The notes below the pieces were generated by a model. That model saw only the letters and a program-made list of their open reading frames with translations. It made no database searches and was not told where the DNA came from. The position numbers and the translations under genes were made by a program. Below are positions 30,372 through 35,830 of a stretch of 64,000 nt of DNA, one piece after another. Position 1 is the first letter of the stretch; the number at the start of each line of letters is the position of its first letter. Source of the stretch: Pseudoalteromonas sp. (GTDB taxonomy: Bacteria > Pseudomonadota > Gammaproteobacteria > Enterobacterales > Alteromonadaceae); the NCBI RefSeq assembly GCF_041629635.1, contig NZ_JBFKMX010000001.1, positions 7,863 to 71,862 on the forward strand. The letters run 5' to 3'.

Positions 30372-31295
30372 ATGTTTTCGTCTCTTTTTCCTTTAGTAGT
30401 CTTGGTTGTGCTTGGCTACCTCACTATGCGTAAGGGCCGTGTGAATCAAGGTACTATTTCAGATCTAAGTAACATCACCTTTAGTTGTTTGTTTCCACTC
30501 TTTTTATTTATCAATATTGCAGAGGCTAAGTTATCGGGTGCGCTGTCATATACTGTGTTCTTAACCTTTTACGGTGCGGTTATTATCACTTTTTTTATAA
30601 CTTATTTTGTTTCACCACGAGTGTTTAAAAAGGAAAATGAAGCGAGCGCAGTACATGCTCTTGGCAGCACTTATTCCAATACCGTGATTGTGGGTTTACC
30701 AATTTTGATTAGTTTAATATCGCCAAATGTCACAGCGCTGGTATTCTTGATCATTAGTTTTCATAGTGCGATGTTATTTGCTGCAGCAAGCTTTTTAACA
30801 AGTATTACTACCAATAAAGCGTTTGAGGTTAAATTATTTTTTATTGAACTCTGTAAAAACCCTTTATTAGTTGGTATTTACACTGGTTTGTTAGTAAATC
30901 TAACGGGTGTGGAGTTGCCAGAATTCATCAGTAAAACGCTTCATCTAATGACCACCCCTGCATTGACGCTTGCTTTGTTTATACTCGGAGCTAATTTATA
31001 TCAATACCGTATAGTGGGCAGTGTTGGTCAAATTGTTTTTGCTAGTTGTGTTAAGCTTCTATTACTGCCGTTATCGACCTTGCTTATTGCAGATGGCGTG
31101 TTTCAGCTTAGCAGTGATATTATATTGATATTGGTTGTGTTAACAGCGTGTCCGACCGGAGTTAATGCCTATATTGTGGCATGTCAGCAAAACCAAGGTC
31201 AAAGTGTAGTAGCCGGTACCGTTGTGATGAGTACATTGCTTAGTGTTATTACCATTCCTGCATGGCTTTTGATATTGGAGTATGGCGTATTTTAA
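30372..31295 (+). CDS. AEC (auxin efflux carrier) family transporter
   Basis: About 10 TM; SNTVIVGLP, KNPLLV, KLLLLP, ACPTGVNAY. Confidence 0.9.
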   Translation: MFSSLFPLVVLVVLGYLTMRKGRVNQGTISDLSNITFSCLFPLFLFINIAEAKLSGALSYTVFLTFYGAVIITFFITYFVSPRVFKKENEASAVHALGSTYSNTVIVGLPILISLISPNVTALVFLIISFHSAMLFAAASFLTSITTNKAFEVKLFFIELCKNPLLVGIYTGLLVNLTGVELPEFISKTLHLMTTPALTLALFILGANLYQYRIVGSVGQIVFASCVKLLLLPLSTLLIADGVFQLSSDIILILVVLTACPTGVNAYIVACQQNQGQSVVAGTVVMSTLLSVITIPAWLLILEYGVF

Positions 31296-31468
31296 TAGTA
31301 CATATTACTTGAAGCCCCCCTTTGCTATGACCTCAATTAGTAAACAAATTTAGTATAAAAGGCCTGAAAGTAACTTTTCAATCCATTCGAAATACGCTTT
31401 TTCGGTATCAAGTACCTCAGTCAAAAGCACAGCCAAATAGGAAGTTAGGTTATTTTGTAATCGACAAA

Positions 31469-31517
31469 ATTGATCAGTGTTCTAACTAATGTTATATTGA
31501 TTAGTGTTCTAATTAAT
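31469..31517. repeat. Two 22-bp palindromic direct repeats, candidate MarR/CosR operators
   Basis: ATTGATCAGTGTTCTAACTAAT (31469-31490) and ATTGATTAGTGTTCTAATTAAT (31496-31517), 20/22 identical; the second is a near-perfect palindrome. Confidence 0.7.
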
Positions 31518-31703
31518 TTTAAAGAGATTTACACCTGCTAGAGTTATTAAACACTCTAACATTAAATAATTATGCATTATTCCCACCGATGTTCAATTAA
31601 GCATATTGCTATCAATTCTAAAGATGTTTTGTGTGTTAGGCATTGACTTGTTTTAACACTATACAAATTCCCTTTTTATACAAATTAACTGCAAGGATAC
31701 TAG

Positions 31704-32546
31704 ATGATGACAGCGACACAATTTGATAGTGAAATGACACTCACAGGAAATAAAATTCGATTTGGCAAACTAAATGACCGCGTCTATATAACGGATGCAA
31801 CAATTGAATTACCCAATACTTTTCACAAAGAGGTCGAAGATTTTGCTAAGCAAGGTGGATACAGCAAAATAATCGCGAAAGTAAAAGATGCCCAAGTATT
31901 ACCTTTTCTAAAAAGGGGATACCAAATAGAAGCTACCGTTCCAGGTTATTTTGGTCTACAAGATGCTATTTTTATTTCACGCTTTTTTGATGAAGAACGT
32001 GCATCATGTGAGCATATGGATCTTAGCGACGGTATTATTAATGAAGTACAAAATGTTGACACGTGGGATCCATCATCCTTTTCGCAGCCAGTGCTTTTCC
32101 GTAAGTGTAACCAGGTTGATGTGCGTGCACTTTCTAAGTTATACCAACTTGCCTTTTCCAGCTATGGATCACCGATAGGTGATGAACATTATATTTCACA
32201 GAGCATTGAAAATGGCGTGGACTATTTTTGTGTTGAGTATATGGATGCAATTGTTGCATGTGTGCGTATTGAATATGAAAAAGATGCACCTAATGCACGT
32301 CTTTACGATACGGTGGTATTACGTCAATTTCGTAATGAAGGAATTGCATCTGCTTTAATCTTTGAAGCCAGAAGATACCTAAAAAATAACGGTGTAGAAT
32401 TTATTTATTCGATTTGCAGGGCTTCATCGTTCGCCATCAATAAAGTGTTTGCAAGACTTGCTTTTGAATACGGGGGGCGGCTTATAAACAATAATTTAGT
32501 TAATAACAAACTTGTATCAATGAATGTATGGTCACAGAAACTCTGA
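31704..32546 (+). CDS. ablB: Putative beta-lysine N-acetyltransferase (AblB/YodP-like GNAT)
   Basis: SKIIAKV, GYQIEATVPGYF, RASSFAINKVF, YGGRLINN, MNVW follow B. subtilis YodP as recalled. Confidence 0.75.
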   Translation: MMTATQFDSEMTLTGNKIRFGKLNDRVYITDATIELPNTFHKEVEDFAKQGGYSKIIAKVKDAQVLPFLKRGYQIEATVPGYFGLQDAIFISRFFDEERASCEHMDLSDGIINEVQNVDTWDPSSFSQPVLFRKCNQVDVRALSKLYQLAFSSYGSPIGDEHYISQSIENGVDYFCVEYMDAIVACVRIEYEKDAPNARLYDTVVLRQFRNEGIASALIFEARRYLKNNGVEFIYSICRASSFAINKVFARLAFEYGGRLINNNLVNNKLVSMNVWSQKL

Positions 32547-32588
32547 CTTTGATTAATTAACATCAATTAATCTTACGGAGACTGAGCA

Positions 32589-35135
32589 ATGACGAGTACA
32601 TTAAAACAACAATTAGATCGATTTACTGCAGAGCAAAATACCCGATTTTTCTCTAGCCCTATCGCTGTGTTACTAGAAGAACGTGCAAATAAATTAGATG
32701 AGATCTTGATTGTAATGTGGCAAGAATGTGGTCTTGCGGATTCTTGCTGTTCACTCAATGCGGTCGGTGGTTATGGACGCACATCACTTCATCCTTATTC
32801 TGACATTGATATTGCTATTATTGCTCCTGATGATGGCTCTGTTTTTCCTGAGCGTGAAATCAGTGATTTTATTATGGGCTTATGGGACCTTGGACTTGAT
32901 ATTGGTCATTCAGTGCGAACAGAATCACAAGCAAAAAAATATGCAACTGAAGATATAACTATCGCAACTAACTTACTGGATATTAGGTGTTTATATGGAA
33001 ATAAACAGCATTCAAAAAGGGTGCGAAACTTTTTGTATGATGAGCAAGGTTGGGCAGATCAGGCTTTTTTGCAAGCTAAGTTAAAAGAGCAAAATGAAAG
33101 GCACAAAAAAGCACTTAATACAGCACTTTATTTAGAGCCAAATATTAAGGCAAATCCTGGTGGTTTAAGGGACTTTCAAACTATTTTATGGGTTGCACGC
33201 AAACATTTAAAAATATCACATACTGAGTTACTTGCGCAGGGAGATCTGTTGCAAGAGGATGAACATTTTGAACTTATTGAAGCGTATGATTTCATTTGTC
33301 GTATTCGCTGGGCACTTCATTGTGTAGCAAAAAAACCACAAGAAACACTGTTGTTCGAGTATCAAGCTGAAGTTGCTGAATTCTTGAAATTTGGTCGCGG
33401 CGATAGCGCACAACAGGCAATTGAGCGTATGATGCGTCAATTGTTTCGTGCAATGACCCGTTTACAAGAGCTTAATCAAATCTTATGTGGAAATGTACGA
33501 AGCAGCATTATGCGCGATCAGCAAAAGCAGATTATTAAACTAAACCAACAGTTCTCATTAGTTGATGGTCTGTTAAATGCAAACACTGCAAGTGTATTTA
33601 TTGATAAAGCGCAGGTGATAAATTTATTTGTGTTGCTAGCGCACCATACTCAAGCTAAAGGCATTTCTTCTCATACTTTACAGTTATTGAGAAAAGTAAA
33701 ACACCGCCTTCTTGGAGAACTCCAAGACTACCAAAGTTGTCGGGAAGCATTTATTCGCTTATTTGAACATCCAAAAACATTAAAAAAAGTGTTAGGTCTA
33801 ATGCATCGCTACGGAGTGCTCGAAATGTATTCAACACAATGGGCACAAAGCGAAGGTAGGATGCAATTTGATATTCACAATGCCTATACGGTAGATGAGC
33901 ATGTTTATAAAACTGTGTCATACATTTCAGATTTCGCATTCAGTAATGATAATCAAGAGAGTTACCACGTTGCTTATGGGCGTGTGCAAAATAAATTAGC
34001 GTTACTGTTAGCGGCTTTTTGTCATCATTTAGCAGGGTCACAAGAAAGCGATAGTCATAGCACGAGTGCTATATTAGCTAGGGAGTTTGCACGTTTTCAC
34101 AACTTAAAAAATGCATCTGTTGAACTGATAGAGTGGCTTATTGAAAATCAAGAATTGTTAATCACAACCAGTCGTACATTAGATATTTACGATCCGAGAA
34201 CGATTAAGGCACTCAATAAAAAGATTAAGTCGCTAGAACGCTTAAATGCTCTCTATACTTTAACGGTTGCAGATATAATGGCAACCAATGAAGATGCGTG
34301 GAATGATTGGCAAGCCGCAATTTTAGAGCAACTTTATTTAGCATCACGTGAAGCATTGAAAACCGATGGAAAAAGTATTTTTGAACAGCGTACTGTTATT
34401 CGAGAAAATAAAGCACAAGCACAAACCATTTTATCAAACAGTGATATAGCATTAGATAATGTGACGGCTTTTTGGTCGACACTCCCGAACAGTTTTTTTA
34501 CTTTCACTAGTGCAAAAGAATTGTCAGAAATTACCGCCAAAGTTGTATCAACTCAGCAGTTTCCGTTGGTTTTTATAACGCAAAGCGAACAGCAAGGCTG
34601 CTCTACTTTAGTTGTGTATACCCCTAATAGGCAAAAACTATTTGTCGACATTTTTAATACATTGACTCGTGCAAAGGTGAATGTAAAAGATGCTGAGCTG
34701 TTAGAAACCAAAGATGGTAACGTATTGGAAGTGTTTCGCGTACTTGACTTCAATGATGAACAGTTAAGCGAGAGTTATCGTATAAAACGTGTTATTAGTC
34801 AAATAGAGCAAGTCATTACGTCAGGACATAAAGACTGCAAGTTACCTGTTGCAAAGAAGATTAAAAACTTTGACTCTGAACCCATGGTGGAATTTATACC
34901 TACGCCCAAGCGCGATCGCACGCTGCTCAAAGTGACAACATTGAACAACCCAAGCTATGTCGATAAAATTTGTTCTGTCTTTCGAACTCACACATTGTCT
35001 ATTCATTCAGCTAAAGTGACAACACTGGGAGAAAGTTTGGAAAGTGTGTTTTTACTTTCAGACATTCACAACCAGTGTTTAAAAGAAGACTTACGTAATC
35101 AAGTCATTGATGCGTTCAGTTATAATTTACATTAA
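32589..35135 (+). CDS. glnD: [Protein-PII] uridylyltransferase-like protein, divergent GlnD paralogue
   Basis: AVGGYGR, HPYSDIDI, LEPNIKANPGGLRD, YTVDEH, two ACT domains; HD motif reads CHHLAG; not in the usual map-glnD-dapD context. Confidence 0.85.
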   Translation: MTSTLKQQLDRFTAEQNTRFFSSPIAVLLEERANKLDEILIVMWQECGLADSCCSLNAVGGYGRTSLHPYSDIDIAIIAPDDGSVFPEREISDFIMGLWDLGLDIGHSVRTESQAKKYATEDITIATNLLDIRCLYGNKQHSKRVRNFLYDEQGWADQAFLQAKLKEQNERHKKALNTALYLEPNIKANPGGLRDFQTILWVARKHLKISHTELLAQGDLLQEDEHFELIEAYDFICRIRWALHCVAKKPQETLLFEYQAEVAEFLKFGRGDSAQQAIERMMRQLFRAMTRLQELNQILCGNVRSSIMRDQQKQIIKLNQQFSLVDGLLNANTASVFIDKAQVINLFVLLAHHTQAKGISSHTLQLLRKVKHRLLGELQDYQSCREAFIRLFEHPKTLKKVLGLMHRYGVLEMYSTQWAQSEGRMQFDIHNAYTVDEHVYKTVSYISDFAFSNDNQESYHVAYGRVQNKLALLLAAFCHHLAGSQESDSHSTSAILAREFARFHNLKNASVELIEWLIENQELLITTSRTLDIYDPRTIKALNKKIKSLERLNALYTLTVADIMATNEDAWNDWQAAILEQLYLASREALKTDGKSIFEQRTVIRENKAQAQTILSNSDIALDNVTAFWSTLPNSFFTFTSAKELSEITAKVVSTQQFPLVFITQSEQQGCSTLVVYTPNRQKLFVDIFNTLTRAKVNVKDAELLETKDGNVLEVFRVLDFNDEQLSESYRIKRVISQIEQVITSGHKDCKLPVAKKIKNFDSEPMVEFIPTPKRDRTLLKVTTLNNPSYVDKICSVFRTHTLSIHSAKVTTLGESLESVFLLSDIHNQCLKEDLRNQVIDAFSYNLH

Positions 35136-35626
35136 TTTTTACTTTCACCATCAGTACTCATACCGATAGGAGCAATTTCTAACATAGGGGCTGCGTCAAG
35201 ATCACTTGCATCCATCATAGTTGCAATTCGCTGCATTGATGAGAGCAATAGACTTTGTTCCCATTGTTCAAGGGCGCAAAAATTCTGAATAAAGTGTTCT
35301 TGCAAGGGTTGGGGTGCATCGATAAGAGAGGTTCTTCCTATATCCGTTAGAAATAAACTAACACGGCGTTTATCTTCTTTGCTGCGTACACGCTCGATTA
35401 GGCCGCGAGACTCTAGTCTATCCAGAATGTTTGTTACAGTTGCCGCGCTTAAATTAATTTCTTTCGCAACAGCACCTGCTGTAACGCCCTTAATACGAGC
35501 GATTTCTTGCATTATCAACAGCTGTGGGCCAGTTAGACCTGAAGATTTATTAAGTTGTTTTGAATGCAAATCGATGGCTCTAATAACTTTACGGATGGAG
35601 ACAAGCAGTTCTTCGTATTTTTCCAT
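35132..35626 (-). CDS. cosR: MarR-family regulator, CosR/EctR-like
   Basis: IRAIDLHSKQL, GLTGPQL, ILDRLE, DKRRV, APQPLQEHF, LEQWEQSLLLSSMQRIA match the CosR/EctR subfamily as recalled. Confidence 0.75.
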   Translation of the reverse strand: MEKYEELLVSIRKVIRAIDLHSKQLNKSSGLTGPQLLIMQEIARIKGVTAGAVAKEINLSAATVTNILDRLESRGLIERVRSKEDKRRVSLFLTDIGRTSLIDAPQPLQEHFIQNFCALEQWEQSLLLSSMQRIATMMDASDLDAAPMLEIAPIGMSTDGESKN

Positions 35627-35830
35627 TTTGAAGTCTTAATATCTGAAATCGTAGTAAATTAATAATTTGAGCTAATAGTACCAAAATGTCTATCGCAAAA
35701 CATTTTTTTGTCTGTCATAACAGGATTTAGTGTCTAAAATTGATTGAAAGTGATTAATTTACAATAACTTTATTTGGTTTTTAAGCTCAAATGATGTCAT
35801 TTTTAAAGGCTATTAATAGGTCATGAAAGA

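Follow-up and report, generated by a model that had tools for sequence, protein, structure and literature searches.

Osmoprotection needs higher glutamate and glutamine pools, and high glutamine normally signals nitrogen sufficiency and turns assimilation off. How a bacterium under salt stress resolves this conflict is a long-standing question. We met it in a 64,000-nt stretch of Pseudoalteromonas sp. DNA (the window), in which a gene for a CosR-type MarR repressor adjoins a two-gene operon. The operon starts with a gene for an AblB-like GNAT acetyltransferase, followed by one for a paralogue of the PII uridylyltransferase GlnD, called GlnD2 here. Does the osmotic repressor control the nitrogen-signalling enzyme, and what would this enzyme do under salt stress?

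Operators in front of the GNAT-GlnD2 operon

Two 27-nt tandem direct repeats with 85% identity (31469-31495 and 31496-31522, together 31469..31522) carry one TTAG-N4-CTAA palindrome each. Operator O1, TTGATCAGTGTTCTAACTAA (31470..31489), is an imperfect palindrome of this type, and operator O2, TTGATTAGTGTTCTAATTAA, occupies positions 31497..31516. We scored both with a weight matrix whose training sites came from other genera only (consensus ATAGTTAGAGCTCTAACTAT). Among 4.02 million genome positions, O2 (score 18.8) has rank 2, with 2 positions scoring at least 18, and O1 (14.7) is within the top 14, with 14 positions scoring at least 14. Both sites are kept in two sister strains, G001 and G018. 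Thus, the palindromic repeats that a preliminary description of this DNA had placed 5' of the ablB-like and glnD-like genes do exist, and their ranks and their retention in the sisters support the view that they are real, conserved operators. Downstream of the repeats, the GNAT and GlnD2 genes follow in this order on the + strand. GlnD2 is convergent with the MarR gene, and the stop codons of the two overlap (35132-35135). The ablB-like, glnD-like and convergent MarR genes of the preliminary description were confirmed by matches to TIGR03827, TIGR01693 and PF01047/PF12802, respectively.

A candidate sigma-70 promoter (31470..31498, + strand) consists of TTGATC, a 17-nt spacer and a TG-extended TATATT, with 9/12 matches. 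Its hexamers are unchanged in G001 and G018. Promoter-like sites are no more frequent in the region than chance predicts, and this weak match to the consensus is treated as a candidate only. The candidate -35 hexamer is overlapped by O1, and O2 starts where the candidate -10 hexamer ends and would span the transcription start. The operators lie about 190–230 nt 5' of the GNAT ATG, a distance that we counted against the explanation preferred below.

Two further sites lie near the start of cosR. The first, ATAATTTGAGCTAATAGTAC (35662..35681), is 36 nt 5' of the ATG and scores 11.2, when 82 genome positions score at least 11. SSM20 and G4 have a site at the conserved position (-56, score 12.7). 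It may be taken as a weak candidate for an autoregulatory site. The second, TTTAGTGTCTAAA (35726..35738), had been described earlier as a related site 5' of cosR; on the + strand, a -10-like TAAAAT that faces the DUF2391 gene overlaps with it. This sequence is present, but its half-sites are spaced by N3 and not N4, its core TTAGTGTCTAA occurs 8 times in the genome, and the close relatives SSM20, G4 and G001 do not share it. On these grounds we rejected it as an operator; it is probably a chance match.

The CosR-type repressor and its predicted regulon

The cosR gene (35132..35626, - strand) encodes a protein of 164 aa with the MarR winged-helix domain (PF01047, 2.9e-15, and PF12802), in line with the length of about 160 aa of the CosR/EctR type. 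It is the sole copy in the genome, and the protein is 76–90% identical across genera. CosR and EctR are repressors of compatible-solute genes at low salt (10.1101/845297; PMC5924519). Orthologues with at least 60% identity adjoin BCCT, GNAT together with betIBA, or putP in Thalassotalea, P. luteoviolacea, P. phenolica, Shewanella and Moritella, which is the neighbourhood of compatible-solute transport and synthesis genes expected of a CosR or EctR. The identity to homologues of a two-replicon family is 52–58%. These homologues are divergent from BCCT or lie 3' of bet genes, as published for Vibrio CosR (10.1101/845297), and this shared context suggests orthology to the experimentally studied Vibrio protein. 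Gene context thus supports the assignment of this MarR protein as a CosR-type osmoregulator, and the earlier CosR/EctR-like label holds.

In the same genome, the further top intergenic sites comprise two in tandem in front of a putP-type Na+/proline symporter gene and one in front of betI-betB. At the only BCCT gene of the genome the best score is 7.5, which is no strong box and counts against the preferred explanation. In 80 named MarR-centred loci, sites scoring at least 12.5, a threshold at which about 0.1 site is expected per 10 kb, were found in promoters of BCCT, GNAT-BCCT, GNAT/betIBA, putP and GNAT-GlnD2. Strong sites also lie just 5' of independent GlnD2 loci outside the training set (L047, L048, L052, L053, L136, L137 and L139), and in relatives the motif also stands before GlnD2 alone. 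No strong boxes were found at the loci of T. piscium and T. profundi, another point against that explanation. A CosR orthologue is present in 23/23 GlnD2 genomes examined in the family and in 6/6 of two other families, as compared to 117 of 251 genomes in an order-wide sample. From comparative genomics, the best reading is that GNAT-GlnD2 belongs to the CosR regulon. The operator consensus is usable for regulon prediction in Pseudoalteromonas, Thalassotalea, Colwellia and Shewanella.

Could some other regulator occupy the motif in place of this MarR, or could the locus be unresponsive to salt, with cosR nearby by coincidence? The binding of MarR to the motif is so far predicted, and no CosR consensus has been published for V. 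parahaemolyticus (10.1101/845297). The MarR loci of Idiomarina and Moritella have no boxes within 5 kb, and the GlnD2 genes of families f2 and f19 have boxes with no MarR nearby. However, the boxes follow MarR-adjacent promoters over BCCT, putP, bet and GlnD2 contexts in many genera, and a MarR orthologue occurs somewhere in all GlnD2 genomes examined. In addition, betI has its own, separate BetI-like box (TTGAACAGTCAAT), and MarR dimers would fit the length of the palindrome and the tandem arrangement. This alternative is very unlikely.

The preliminary description had treated the GNAT, GlnD2 and MarR genes as a triad, and this stood in part. The linkage is conserved, as GNAT lies directly 5' of GlnD2 in 15/23 GlnD2 genomes and MarR adjoins in about 15/23. 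The triad as a fixed unit did not stand, as GlnD2 and GNAT each occur without the other. GlnD2 with the same operators and with no GNAT or MarR nearby is found in several genera and in two other families. The conserved core of the module, as judged from these genomes, is GlnD2. Its gene is often monocistronic and its neighbours vary, as would be expected if the target were a housekeeping protein such as PII.

The AblB-like acetyltransferase and GlnD2

The GNAT gene (31704..32546, + strand) encodes 280 aa. The protein matches TIGR03827 (GNAT_ablB) marginally, with 215.7 bits against a cut-off of 205.1, and PF00583 covers residues 145–254. In the AlphaFold model (pLDDT 84), the C-terminal domain matches amino-acid N-acetyltransferases, the N-terminal domain is a second GNAT-like fold and not PII-like, and the full length aligns with the tandem-GNAT protein VipF. 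The acetyl-CoA motif Q/R-x-x-G-x-G/A is present as RNEGIA. In the GlnD2-coupled GNATs of Thalassotalea and Colwellia this motif is missing, with the reading frame intact (about 270 aa). The loss hints at a non-catalytic partner role, which our preferred explanation leaves unaccounted for.

Could this GNAT be a true AblB, which converts beta-lysine to N-epsilon-acetyl-beta-lysine? Its TIGR03827 score is just over the cut-off, and the genome has an EpmB-like lysine 2,3-aminomutase homologue. However, this homologue, on another contig (C27), is the sole KamA-family match (212 bits, cut-off 525), and an ablA partner was not found in the genome, the assembly being 90.5% complete. Homologues of the GNAT travel with BCCT or betIBA and not with an aminomutase, and the GNAT is also found with CosR in the absence of GlnD2. 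It is hard to credit a true AblB on this evidence. Most likely, the predicted enzyme would N-acetylate an amino acid or diamino acid to give a neutral solute.

In the textbook view, GlnD is a single-copy glutamine sensor; it modifies PII (GlnB/GlnK) at Tyr51 in a glutamine-dependent way. Here GlnD2 (32589..35135, + strand; 848 aa) is 34% identical to the genome's canonical GlnD, whose gene has map and dapD on its two sides on contig C103. Two PII genes are present in this genome. A canonical glnD is always retained in genomes with GlnD2. The GlnD2 gene begins 42 nt past GNAT, with GGAG 8 nt before its ATG. The protein gives a full-length match to TIGR01693 (606.3 bits, curated cut-off 519.4) together with PF08335 and ACT hits, and has the NT, HD and two ACT domains. 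With its counterparts in at least three families, GlnD2 forms a monophyletic clade.

The two catalytic sites of GlnD2 have had different fates. The transferase motif GGYGR...DIDI is intact (VGGYGRTSLHPYSDIDIAII); D-x-D is kept in every GlnD2 member, and in two members Q replaces the R of GGxGR. The uridylyl-removing HD motif reads CHHLAGSQESDSH in GlnD2 and FHDIAKGRGGDH in canonical GlnD. GlnD2 departs from the HD signature H...HD(IAKGRGGDH)...D and has no Pfam HD match, and the HD site is altered in all of the at least 25 members examined. Nevertheless, GlnD2 could be a fully bifunctional, salt-adapted GlnD isozyme, which would take care of normal glutamine sensing while the housekeeping enzyme is impaired by high K+-glutamate. 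Its four domains are all conserved and under constraint, no member has changed the first His (DEH) or the last Asp (AD..ATN) of the HD signature, and one sub-clade retains HD followed by a nearby Lys (HDLSGKQ). Yet a monophyletic sub-clade that includes the window's protein has HH instead, with no Lys in this genus (CHHLAGSQ), and GGDH is gone from every GlnD2, though it is unchanged in canonical GlnD here and in the f6 type. Full bifunctionality is thus distinctly unlikely. As to the sub-clade that keeps HD, the loss of uridylyl-removing activity may not hold clade-wide, and metal binding could still be possible with His instead of Asp.

Another reading is that GlnD2 nucleotidylylates a target other than PII, either the AblB-like protein or another osmoadaptation protein. 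GlnD2 would then carry out a new protein nucleotidylylation in response to osmotic stress, with the AblB-like and often catalytically dead GNAT as partner, adaptor or substrate, and GlnD-type signalling would reach past PII for the first time. The frequent adjacency of the pair, the low identity of GlnD2 to canonical GlnD and the pseudoenzyme-like GNATs 5' of GlnD2 in Thalassotalea and Colwellia speak for it. On the other side, GlnD2 alone with the same operators in places and GNAT without GlnD2 elsewhere mean that each protein can do without the other; the GNAT's N-terminal domain is GNAT-like and not PII-like; and PII is the only known GlnD substrate (PMC4285133). We consider this reading rather unlikely.

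A proposed mechanism and its relation to known systems

The whole explanation that we prefer is a CosR-repressed GNAT-GlnD2 operon whose GlnD2 biases PII to the uridylylated state under salt; we regard its chances of being right and wrong as evenly balanced. Comparative genomics provides the gene identities, the operator conservation, the regulon composition, and the GlnD2 clade with its motif changes. From these we infer CosR binding, the salt response of GNAT-GlnD2, PII (GlnB/GlnK) as the target and the one-way activity of GlnD2. The locus would be one arm of a CosR-type osmotic-stress regulon. At low salinity, MarR dimers on both TTAG-N4-CTAA operators would lie over the -35 box and the start region of the operon promoter and keep GNAT-GlnD2 repressed. 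When cytoplasmic ionic strength rises, CosR would leave the DNA, and GNAT and GlnD2 would be expressed together with betIBA and the putP-type transporter, which have the same boxes. GlnD2 keeps the nucleotidyltransferase site and both ACT domains with a degraded uridylyl-removing HD site, and therefore it would add UMP to GlnB/GlnK and remove it poorly. PII would be held in the 'nitrogen-limited' state despite high glutamine. The outcome would be active glutamine synthetase and NtrBC output, feeding a glutamate/glutamine pool for osmoadaptation in a cell with no ectoine pathway.

A salt-induced one-way uridylyltransferase would resolve the conflict between osmoprotection and the glutamine signal by a testable mechanism. 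In the literature searched, we found no prior description of a CosR-controlled GNAT-GlnD2 arrangement. The arrangement is repeated in numerous related bacteria of the sea and suggests a connection, not described so far, of salt stress with nitrogen signalling. What is new is a conserved clade of GlnD paralogues in which the 'writer' site is intact and the 'eraser' site degraded; the clade stands behind CosR-type operators in at least three families of marine gammaproteobacteria.

The nearest known regulators are CosR of V. cholerae (VC1278) and V. parahaemolyticus (VP1906). They share with the window's protein the MarR family, the length of about 160 aa and very high sequence conservation, as well as the linkage to BCCT and betIBA, and Vibrio CosR represses compatible-solute genes (10.1101/845297). 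In contrast, the predicted neighbouring target here is the GNAT-GlnD2 operon, not reported in any CosR regulon. The gene is convergent with its neighbour, with overlapping stops, whereas in Vibrio it is divergent, and a TTAG-N4-CTAA operator can be derived here, whereas none has been published for Vibrio. EctR1 of Methylomicrobium alcaliphilum 20Z is also a MarR repressor, but it controls ectABC-ask, and no ectoine synthase above the cut-off was found in the window's genome. The EctR1 site, TATTTAGT-GT-ACTATATA, resembles TTAGTGTTCTAA. At an osmoregulated promoter, an EctR1 dimer sits on the -10 box (PMC5924519).

AblB of methanogens, the beta-lysine N-acetyltransferase, and B. subtilis YodP resemble the GNAT in the family HMM match and in length (about 270–280 aa). 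The window's GNAT differs from them in having no ablA partner in its genome, and its clade in the genomic partners (CosR, BCCT, betIBA or GlnD2) and in the loss of the acetyl-CoA motif in some members. The bifunctional UTase/UR GlnD of E. coli and R. rubrum has the same four-domain order, the TIGR01693 match above cut-off and the intact GGxGR...DxD. GlnD2, unlike it, is a second copy beside the map-glnD-dapD gene, has an altered HD site (HH, no GGDH) and stands behind CosR-type operators. Finally, PMC5924519 cites (as its reference 219) the control of ectABCD by GlnR in Streptomyces, an earlier case of cross-talk in which nitrogen regulation is tied to the synthesis of osmolytes. The components differ and the direction is reversed: there a nitrogen regulator acts on osmolyte genes, whereas here an osmotic repressor is proposed to act on a nitrogen-signal enzyme.

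Gene order and putative operators of the GNAT-GlnD2 locus

In this draft genome (4.03 Mb, 39% G+C, 90.5% complete), an intergenic region of 408 nt follows an auxin-efflux-carrier-type transporter gene, whose end is at 31295. Next come the gene of a 280-aa acetyltransferase (GNAT, 31704-32546; TIGR03827 GNAT_ablB, 215.7 bits, cut-off 205.1) and, after a gap of 42 nt, the gene of an 848-aa GlnD-type protein (GlnD2, 32589-35135; TIGR01693, 606 bits, cut-off 519), which has GGAG 8 nt before its ATG. The cosR gene (35132-35626), on the opposite strand, encodes a 164-aa MarR protein with matches to PF01047 and PF12802. These matches bear out the preliminary description, in which the three genes were called ablB-like, glnD-like and MarR. 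At 35132-35135, GlnD2 (+) and cosR (-) end in overlapping stop codons, and no terminator-like hairpin was found between the two genes. A tail-to-tail overlap of the two transcripts is therefore unavoidable. This suggests that the two genes may interfere with each other by antisense transcription, with induced transcription of the operon possibly running antisense into cosR. A BCCT gene lies similarly close against cosR in P. luteoviolacea, where the gap is 12 nt. Divergent from cosR, a DUF2391-type gene (35831-36226) encodes a 131-aa membrane protein whose match to DUF2391/TIGR02587 is limited to the C-terminal half of the family, and the gene keeps this position in the close strains SSM20 and G4.

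The 408-nt intergenic region contains tandem 27-bp repeats (31469-31495 and 31496-31522, 85% identical), each with a palindrome of the form TTRATYAG-TGTT-CTAAYTAA. An alignment of the regions upstream of GNAT homologues in 18 further genomes showed that, in other genera, the homologue is closely preceded by a conserved box (for example, ATAGTTAGAGCTCTAATTAA), and a second box is usually found further upstream. From the sites outside the genus only, we built a symmetrised weight matrix (consensus ATAGTTAGAGCTCTAACTAT) and scanned the 4.02 million positions of the window's own genome. The operator O2 (31497-31516) scored 18.8, which is the second best value in the genome. The operator O1 (31470-31489) scored 14.7, and just 14 genome positions reach 14. 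That two top-14 sites should lie 27 bp from each other by chance is extremely unlikely. Both operators are retained in the sister strains G001 and G018, with differences confined to the central 4 nt. Thus, the palindromic repeats noted previously upstream of the ablB-like and glnD-like genes are real, as their matrix rank and conservation indicate. The operators coincide with a sigma-70-like promoter candidate, recognised by consensus match only (31470-31498; TTGATC, 17 nt, TG-TATATT): O1 covers the -35 box, and O2 starts at the -10 box.

A third site, at 35726-35738 upstream of cosR, had been described as related to these repeats. We do not retain it as an operator, because its spacing is N3, its core occurs at eight places in the genome, and the site is conserved in none of the strains SSM20, G4 and G001. 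This site overlaps a -10-like TAAAAT facing the DUF2391-type gene. A weak site (35662-35681, score 11.2) is present 36 nt upstream of cosR, and its position is kept only in close relatives. CosR autoregulation is absent in V. parahaemolyticus (10.1101/845297). An RNA element in the GNAT leader was also considered and rejected, since no Rfam family matched within 31200-35900 at E up to 1, and the leader of about 200 nt folds no better than shuffled sequences (z = 0.44).

The MarR protein and its predicted regulon

CosR and EctR repress compatible-solute genes at low salinity, with ionic strength as the presumed cue (10.1101/845297; PMC5924519). Scanning public genomes with the MarR protein gave 80 named loci, among which the orthologues are 60-91% identical to it. 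The neighbour of the cosR orthologue is a convergent BCCT transporter gene in Thalassotalea marina, Thalassomonas and P. luteoviolacea, GNAT with betIBA in the P. phenolica group, bet genes in Moritella and Shewanella, and a putP gene in Shewanella and Neptunicella; GNAT-GlnD2 is a further context. The putP and cosR orthologues of Shewanella and Neptunicella are divergent, and the box between them scores 22-23. Across the MarR-centred loci, matrix sites scoring at least 12.5, expected about 0.1 times per 10 kb, are almost confined to the promoters of BCCT, GNAT, bet, putP and GlnD2 neighbours. In a two-replicon family of the same order, the genes of MarR homologues (52-58% identical) either diverge from a BCCT gene or follow betB at a distance of a few kb. 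They share these contexts with Vibrio CosR, a protein of 158 aa whose gene is divergent from bcct3 or downstream of betIBAproXWV (10.1101/845297). Given the box distribution and the neighbour contexts matching Vibrio CosR, the MarR protein is regarded as a CosR orthologue that has these boxes for operators, and we infer that it binds them. This agrees with the earlier assignment of the gene as CosR/EctR-like. In P. luteoviolacea HI1, a 282-aa ORF without a Pfam match (L018 7067-7915) lies just upstream of a CosR-boxed GNAT-BCCT operon.

The other top-scoring intergenic matches in the window's own genome include CosR-type boxes at further osmolyte genes. A putP-type Na+/proline symporter gene (TIGR02121, 628 bits) is preceded, at about 215 nt, by two adjacent boxes that lie 15 bp from each other (C176:1-234; scores 15.2 and 15.6). 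Another one (C57:12203-12222, score 14.3) is about 200 nt upstream of betI-betB and is distinct from the BetI-like TTGAACAGTCAAT box, which is nearer betI. No strong box was found at the promoter of the genome's BCCT gene, where the best score was 7.5 and only CACTCTAAAA half-site-like repeats were seen. Two further intergenic matches were recorded, one (C44:11700, score 15.4) 143 nt upstream of a SpoT/RelA-type gene of 701 aa and the other (C246:1612, score 15.9) 5 nt upstream of a 302-aa zinc-carboxypeptidase / N-acetylornithine-deacetylase-like gene.

Distribution of GlnD2 and its companions

The canonical glnD of the genome (897 bits) is flanked by map and dapD and is located on a different contig; thus, the window gene is a second copy, and the two proteins are 34% identical. 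Of the 151 genomes sampled in the family, 21 besides the window's own have GlnD2-type genes (12 genera, counting the window's own), and such genes were also found in two further families. They are 44-50% identical to the window's GlnD2, and canonical GlnD proteins are 33-36% identical to it. A canonical copy is always present as well in the GlnD2-bearing genomes of the family. Matches from family f6 (41-43% identity) were rejected as GlnD2, because they keep HDLAKGRGGDH and are of the canonical type.

The proposal that the three genes form a conserved triad stood in part. Of 23 genomes, 15 have a GNAT homologue as the gene immediately before GlnD2, and about 15 have the MarR gene next to GlnD2, the two being convergent, divergent or co-directional. 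On the other side, GlnD2 occurs without GNAT in T. castellviae and Colwellia sp. and entirely alone in some genomes, and GNAT accompanies CosR in the absence of GlnD2 in the GNAT-BCCT arrangement of P. luteoviolacea and the GNAT/betIBA arrangement of P. phenolica. In the Thalassotalea piscium group (L095 8099-8545, L049 4690-5064), a truncated, N-terminal-like GNAT remnant of 124-148 aa lies upstream of GlnD2, and no strong CosR boxes were found at these two loci. Also where GlnD2 has no full GNAT beside it or stands alone, strong boxes precede it closely, as seen at L047, L048, L052, L053, L136, L137 and L139, none of which served for training the matrix. The CosR orthologue is present in 23/23 GlnD2 genomes of the family and in 6/6 of the other families (117/251 in the order-wide sample). 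From these layouts and the co-occurrence of GlnD2 with boxes and CosR, the conserved unit is judged to be "CosR box + GlnD2", with GNAT a frequent but dispensable companion.

GlnD2 and GNAT proteins and the proposed mechanism

Canonical GlnD has uridylyltransferase activity in its N-terminal domain and uridylyl-removing activity in its HD domain, and PII is its only known substrate (PMC4285133). The nucleotidyltransferase signature is retained in GlnD2 (VGGYGRTSLHPYSDIDIAII). Of the HD signature, the first His and the last Asp persist, but the canonical FHDIAKGRGGDH is changed to CHHLAGSQESDSH. The GGDH element is gone from every GlnD2; HD[IL]AKGRGGDH is kept by canonical GlnD here and by the f6 type. 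In a tree rooted on canonical GlnD, GlnD2 is monophyletic with two sub-clades. One reads C-H-D-L-S-G-K-Q. The other reads C-H-H-[LI]-[SA]-G and holds both the window's GlnD2 and members of a second family, which means that the change from HD to HH arose once. All four domains are conserved within the clade (37-61% identity by domain), and this conservation argues that GlnD2 is functional and not decaying. An orthologue in family f2 (G037:C1:3133118-3135640) is interrupted by two in-frame TAA codons and probably represents a pseudogene. No solved structure matching GlnD2 or GNAT by sequence was found.

The window's GNAT keeps the acetyl-CoA motif RNEGIA. Its AlphaFold model (pLDDT 84) has two GNAT-like halves and aligns over its full length to the tandem-GNAT VipF; the C-terminal half matches amino-acid N-acetyltransferases such as phosphinothricin acetyltransferase, RimI and SpeG. 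On these grounds, the idea that the N-terminal domain is a PII- or ACT-like target domain was rejected. A true AblA/AblB pathway was likewise rejected, because AblA was not found in the 90.5% complete genome; the sole KamA-family match is EpmB-like (212 bits versus a cut-off of 525). The GlnD2-coupled GNAT homologues L058, L085, L086 and L087 of Thalassotalea/Colwellia have intact ORFs and lack the acetyl-CoA motif (for example, VNVEYEPNILISCLL for VLRQFRNEGIASALI). A simple "osmolyte synthase" reading does not explain this loss, and these AblB-like proteins are possibly pseudoenzymes that work in partnership with GlnD2.

In the most probable scheme, the promoter would be blocked at low salt by CosR dimers bound to O1 and O2. 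Upon a salt upshift the dimers would release it, so that GNAT and GlnD2 would be produced along with betIBA and the putP-type transporter. The ectoine pathway was rejected as a CosR target in this genome, since no ectoine synthase EctC scored above the cut-off. With one BCCT gene, two PII genes and no ectoine synthase above the cut-off, de novo osmoadaptation must lean largely on glutamate-family solutes. If GlnD2 adds UMP but removes it poorly, GlnB/GlnK would stay uridylylated despite high glutamine, and in consequence glutamine synthetase would remain active and NtrBC output would continue. A universal target such as PII fits the monocistronic, neighbour-independent occurrence of GlnD2.

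The observation is real, and comparative genomics gives its regulatory reading good support. The literature searched contained no paper on a link between GlnD or uridylyltransferase and CosR, AblB or osmotic control. The CosR regulon and GlnD are the known parts of this system, and the new element is a CosR-linked clade of GlnD paralogues with a degraded uridylyl-removing site.
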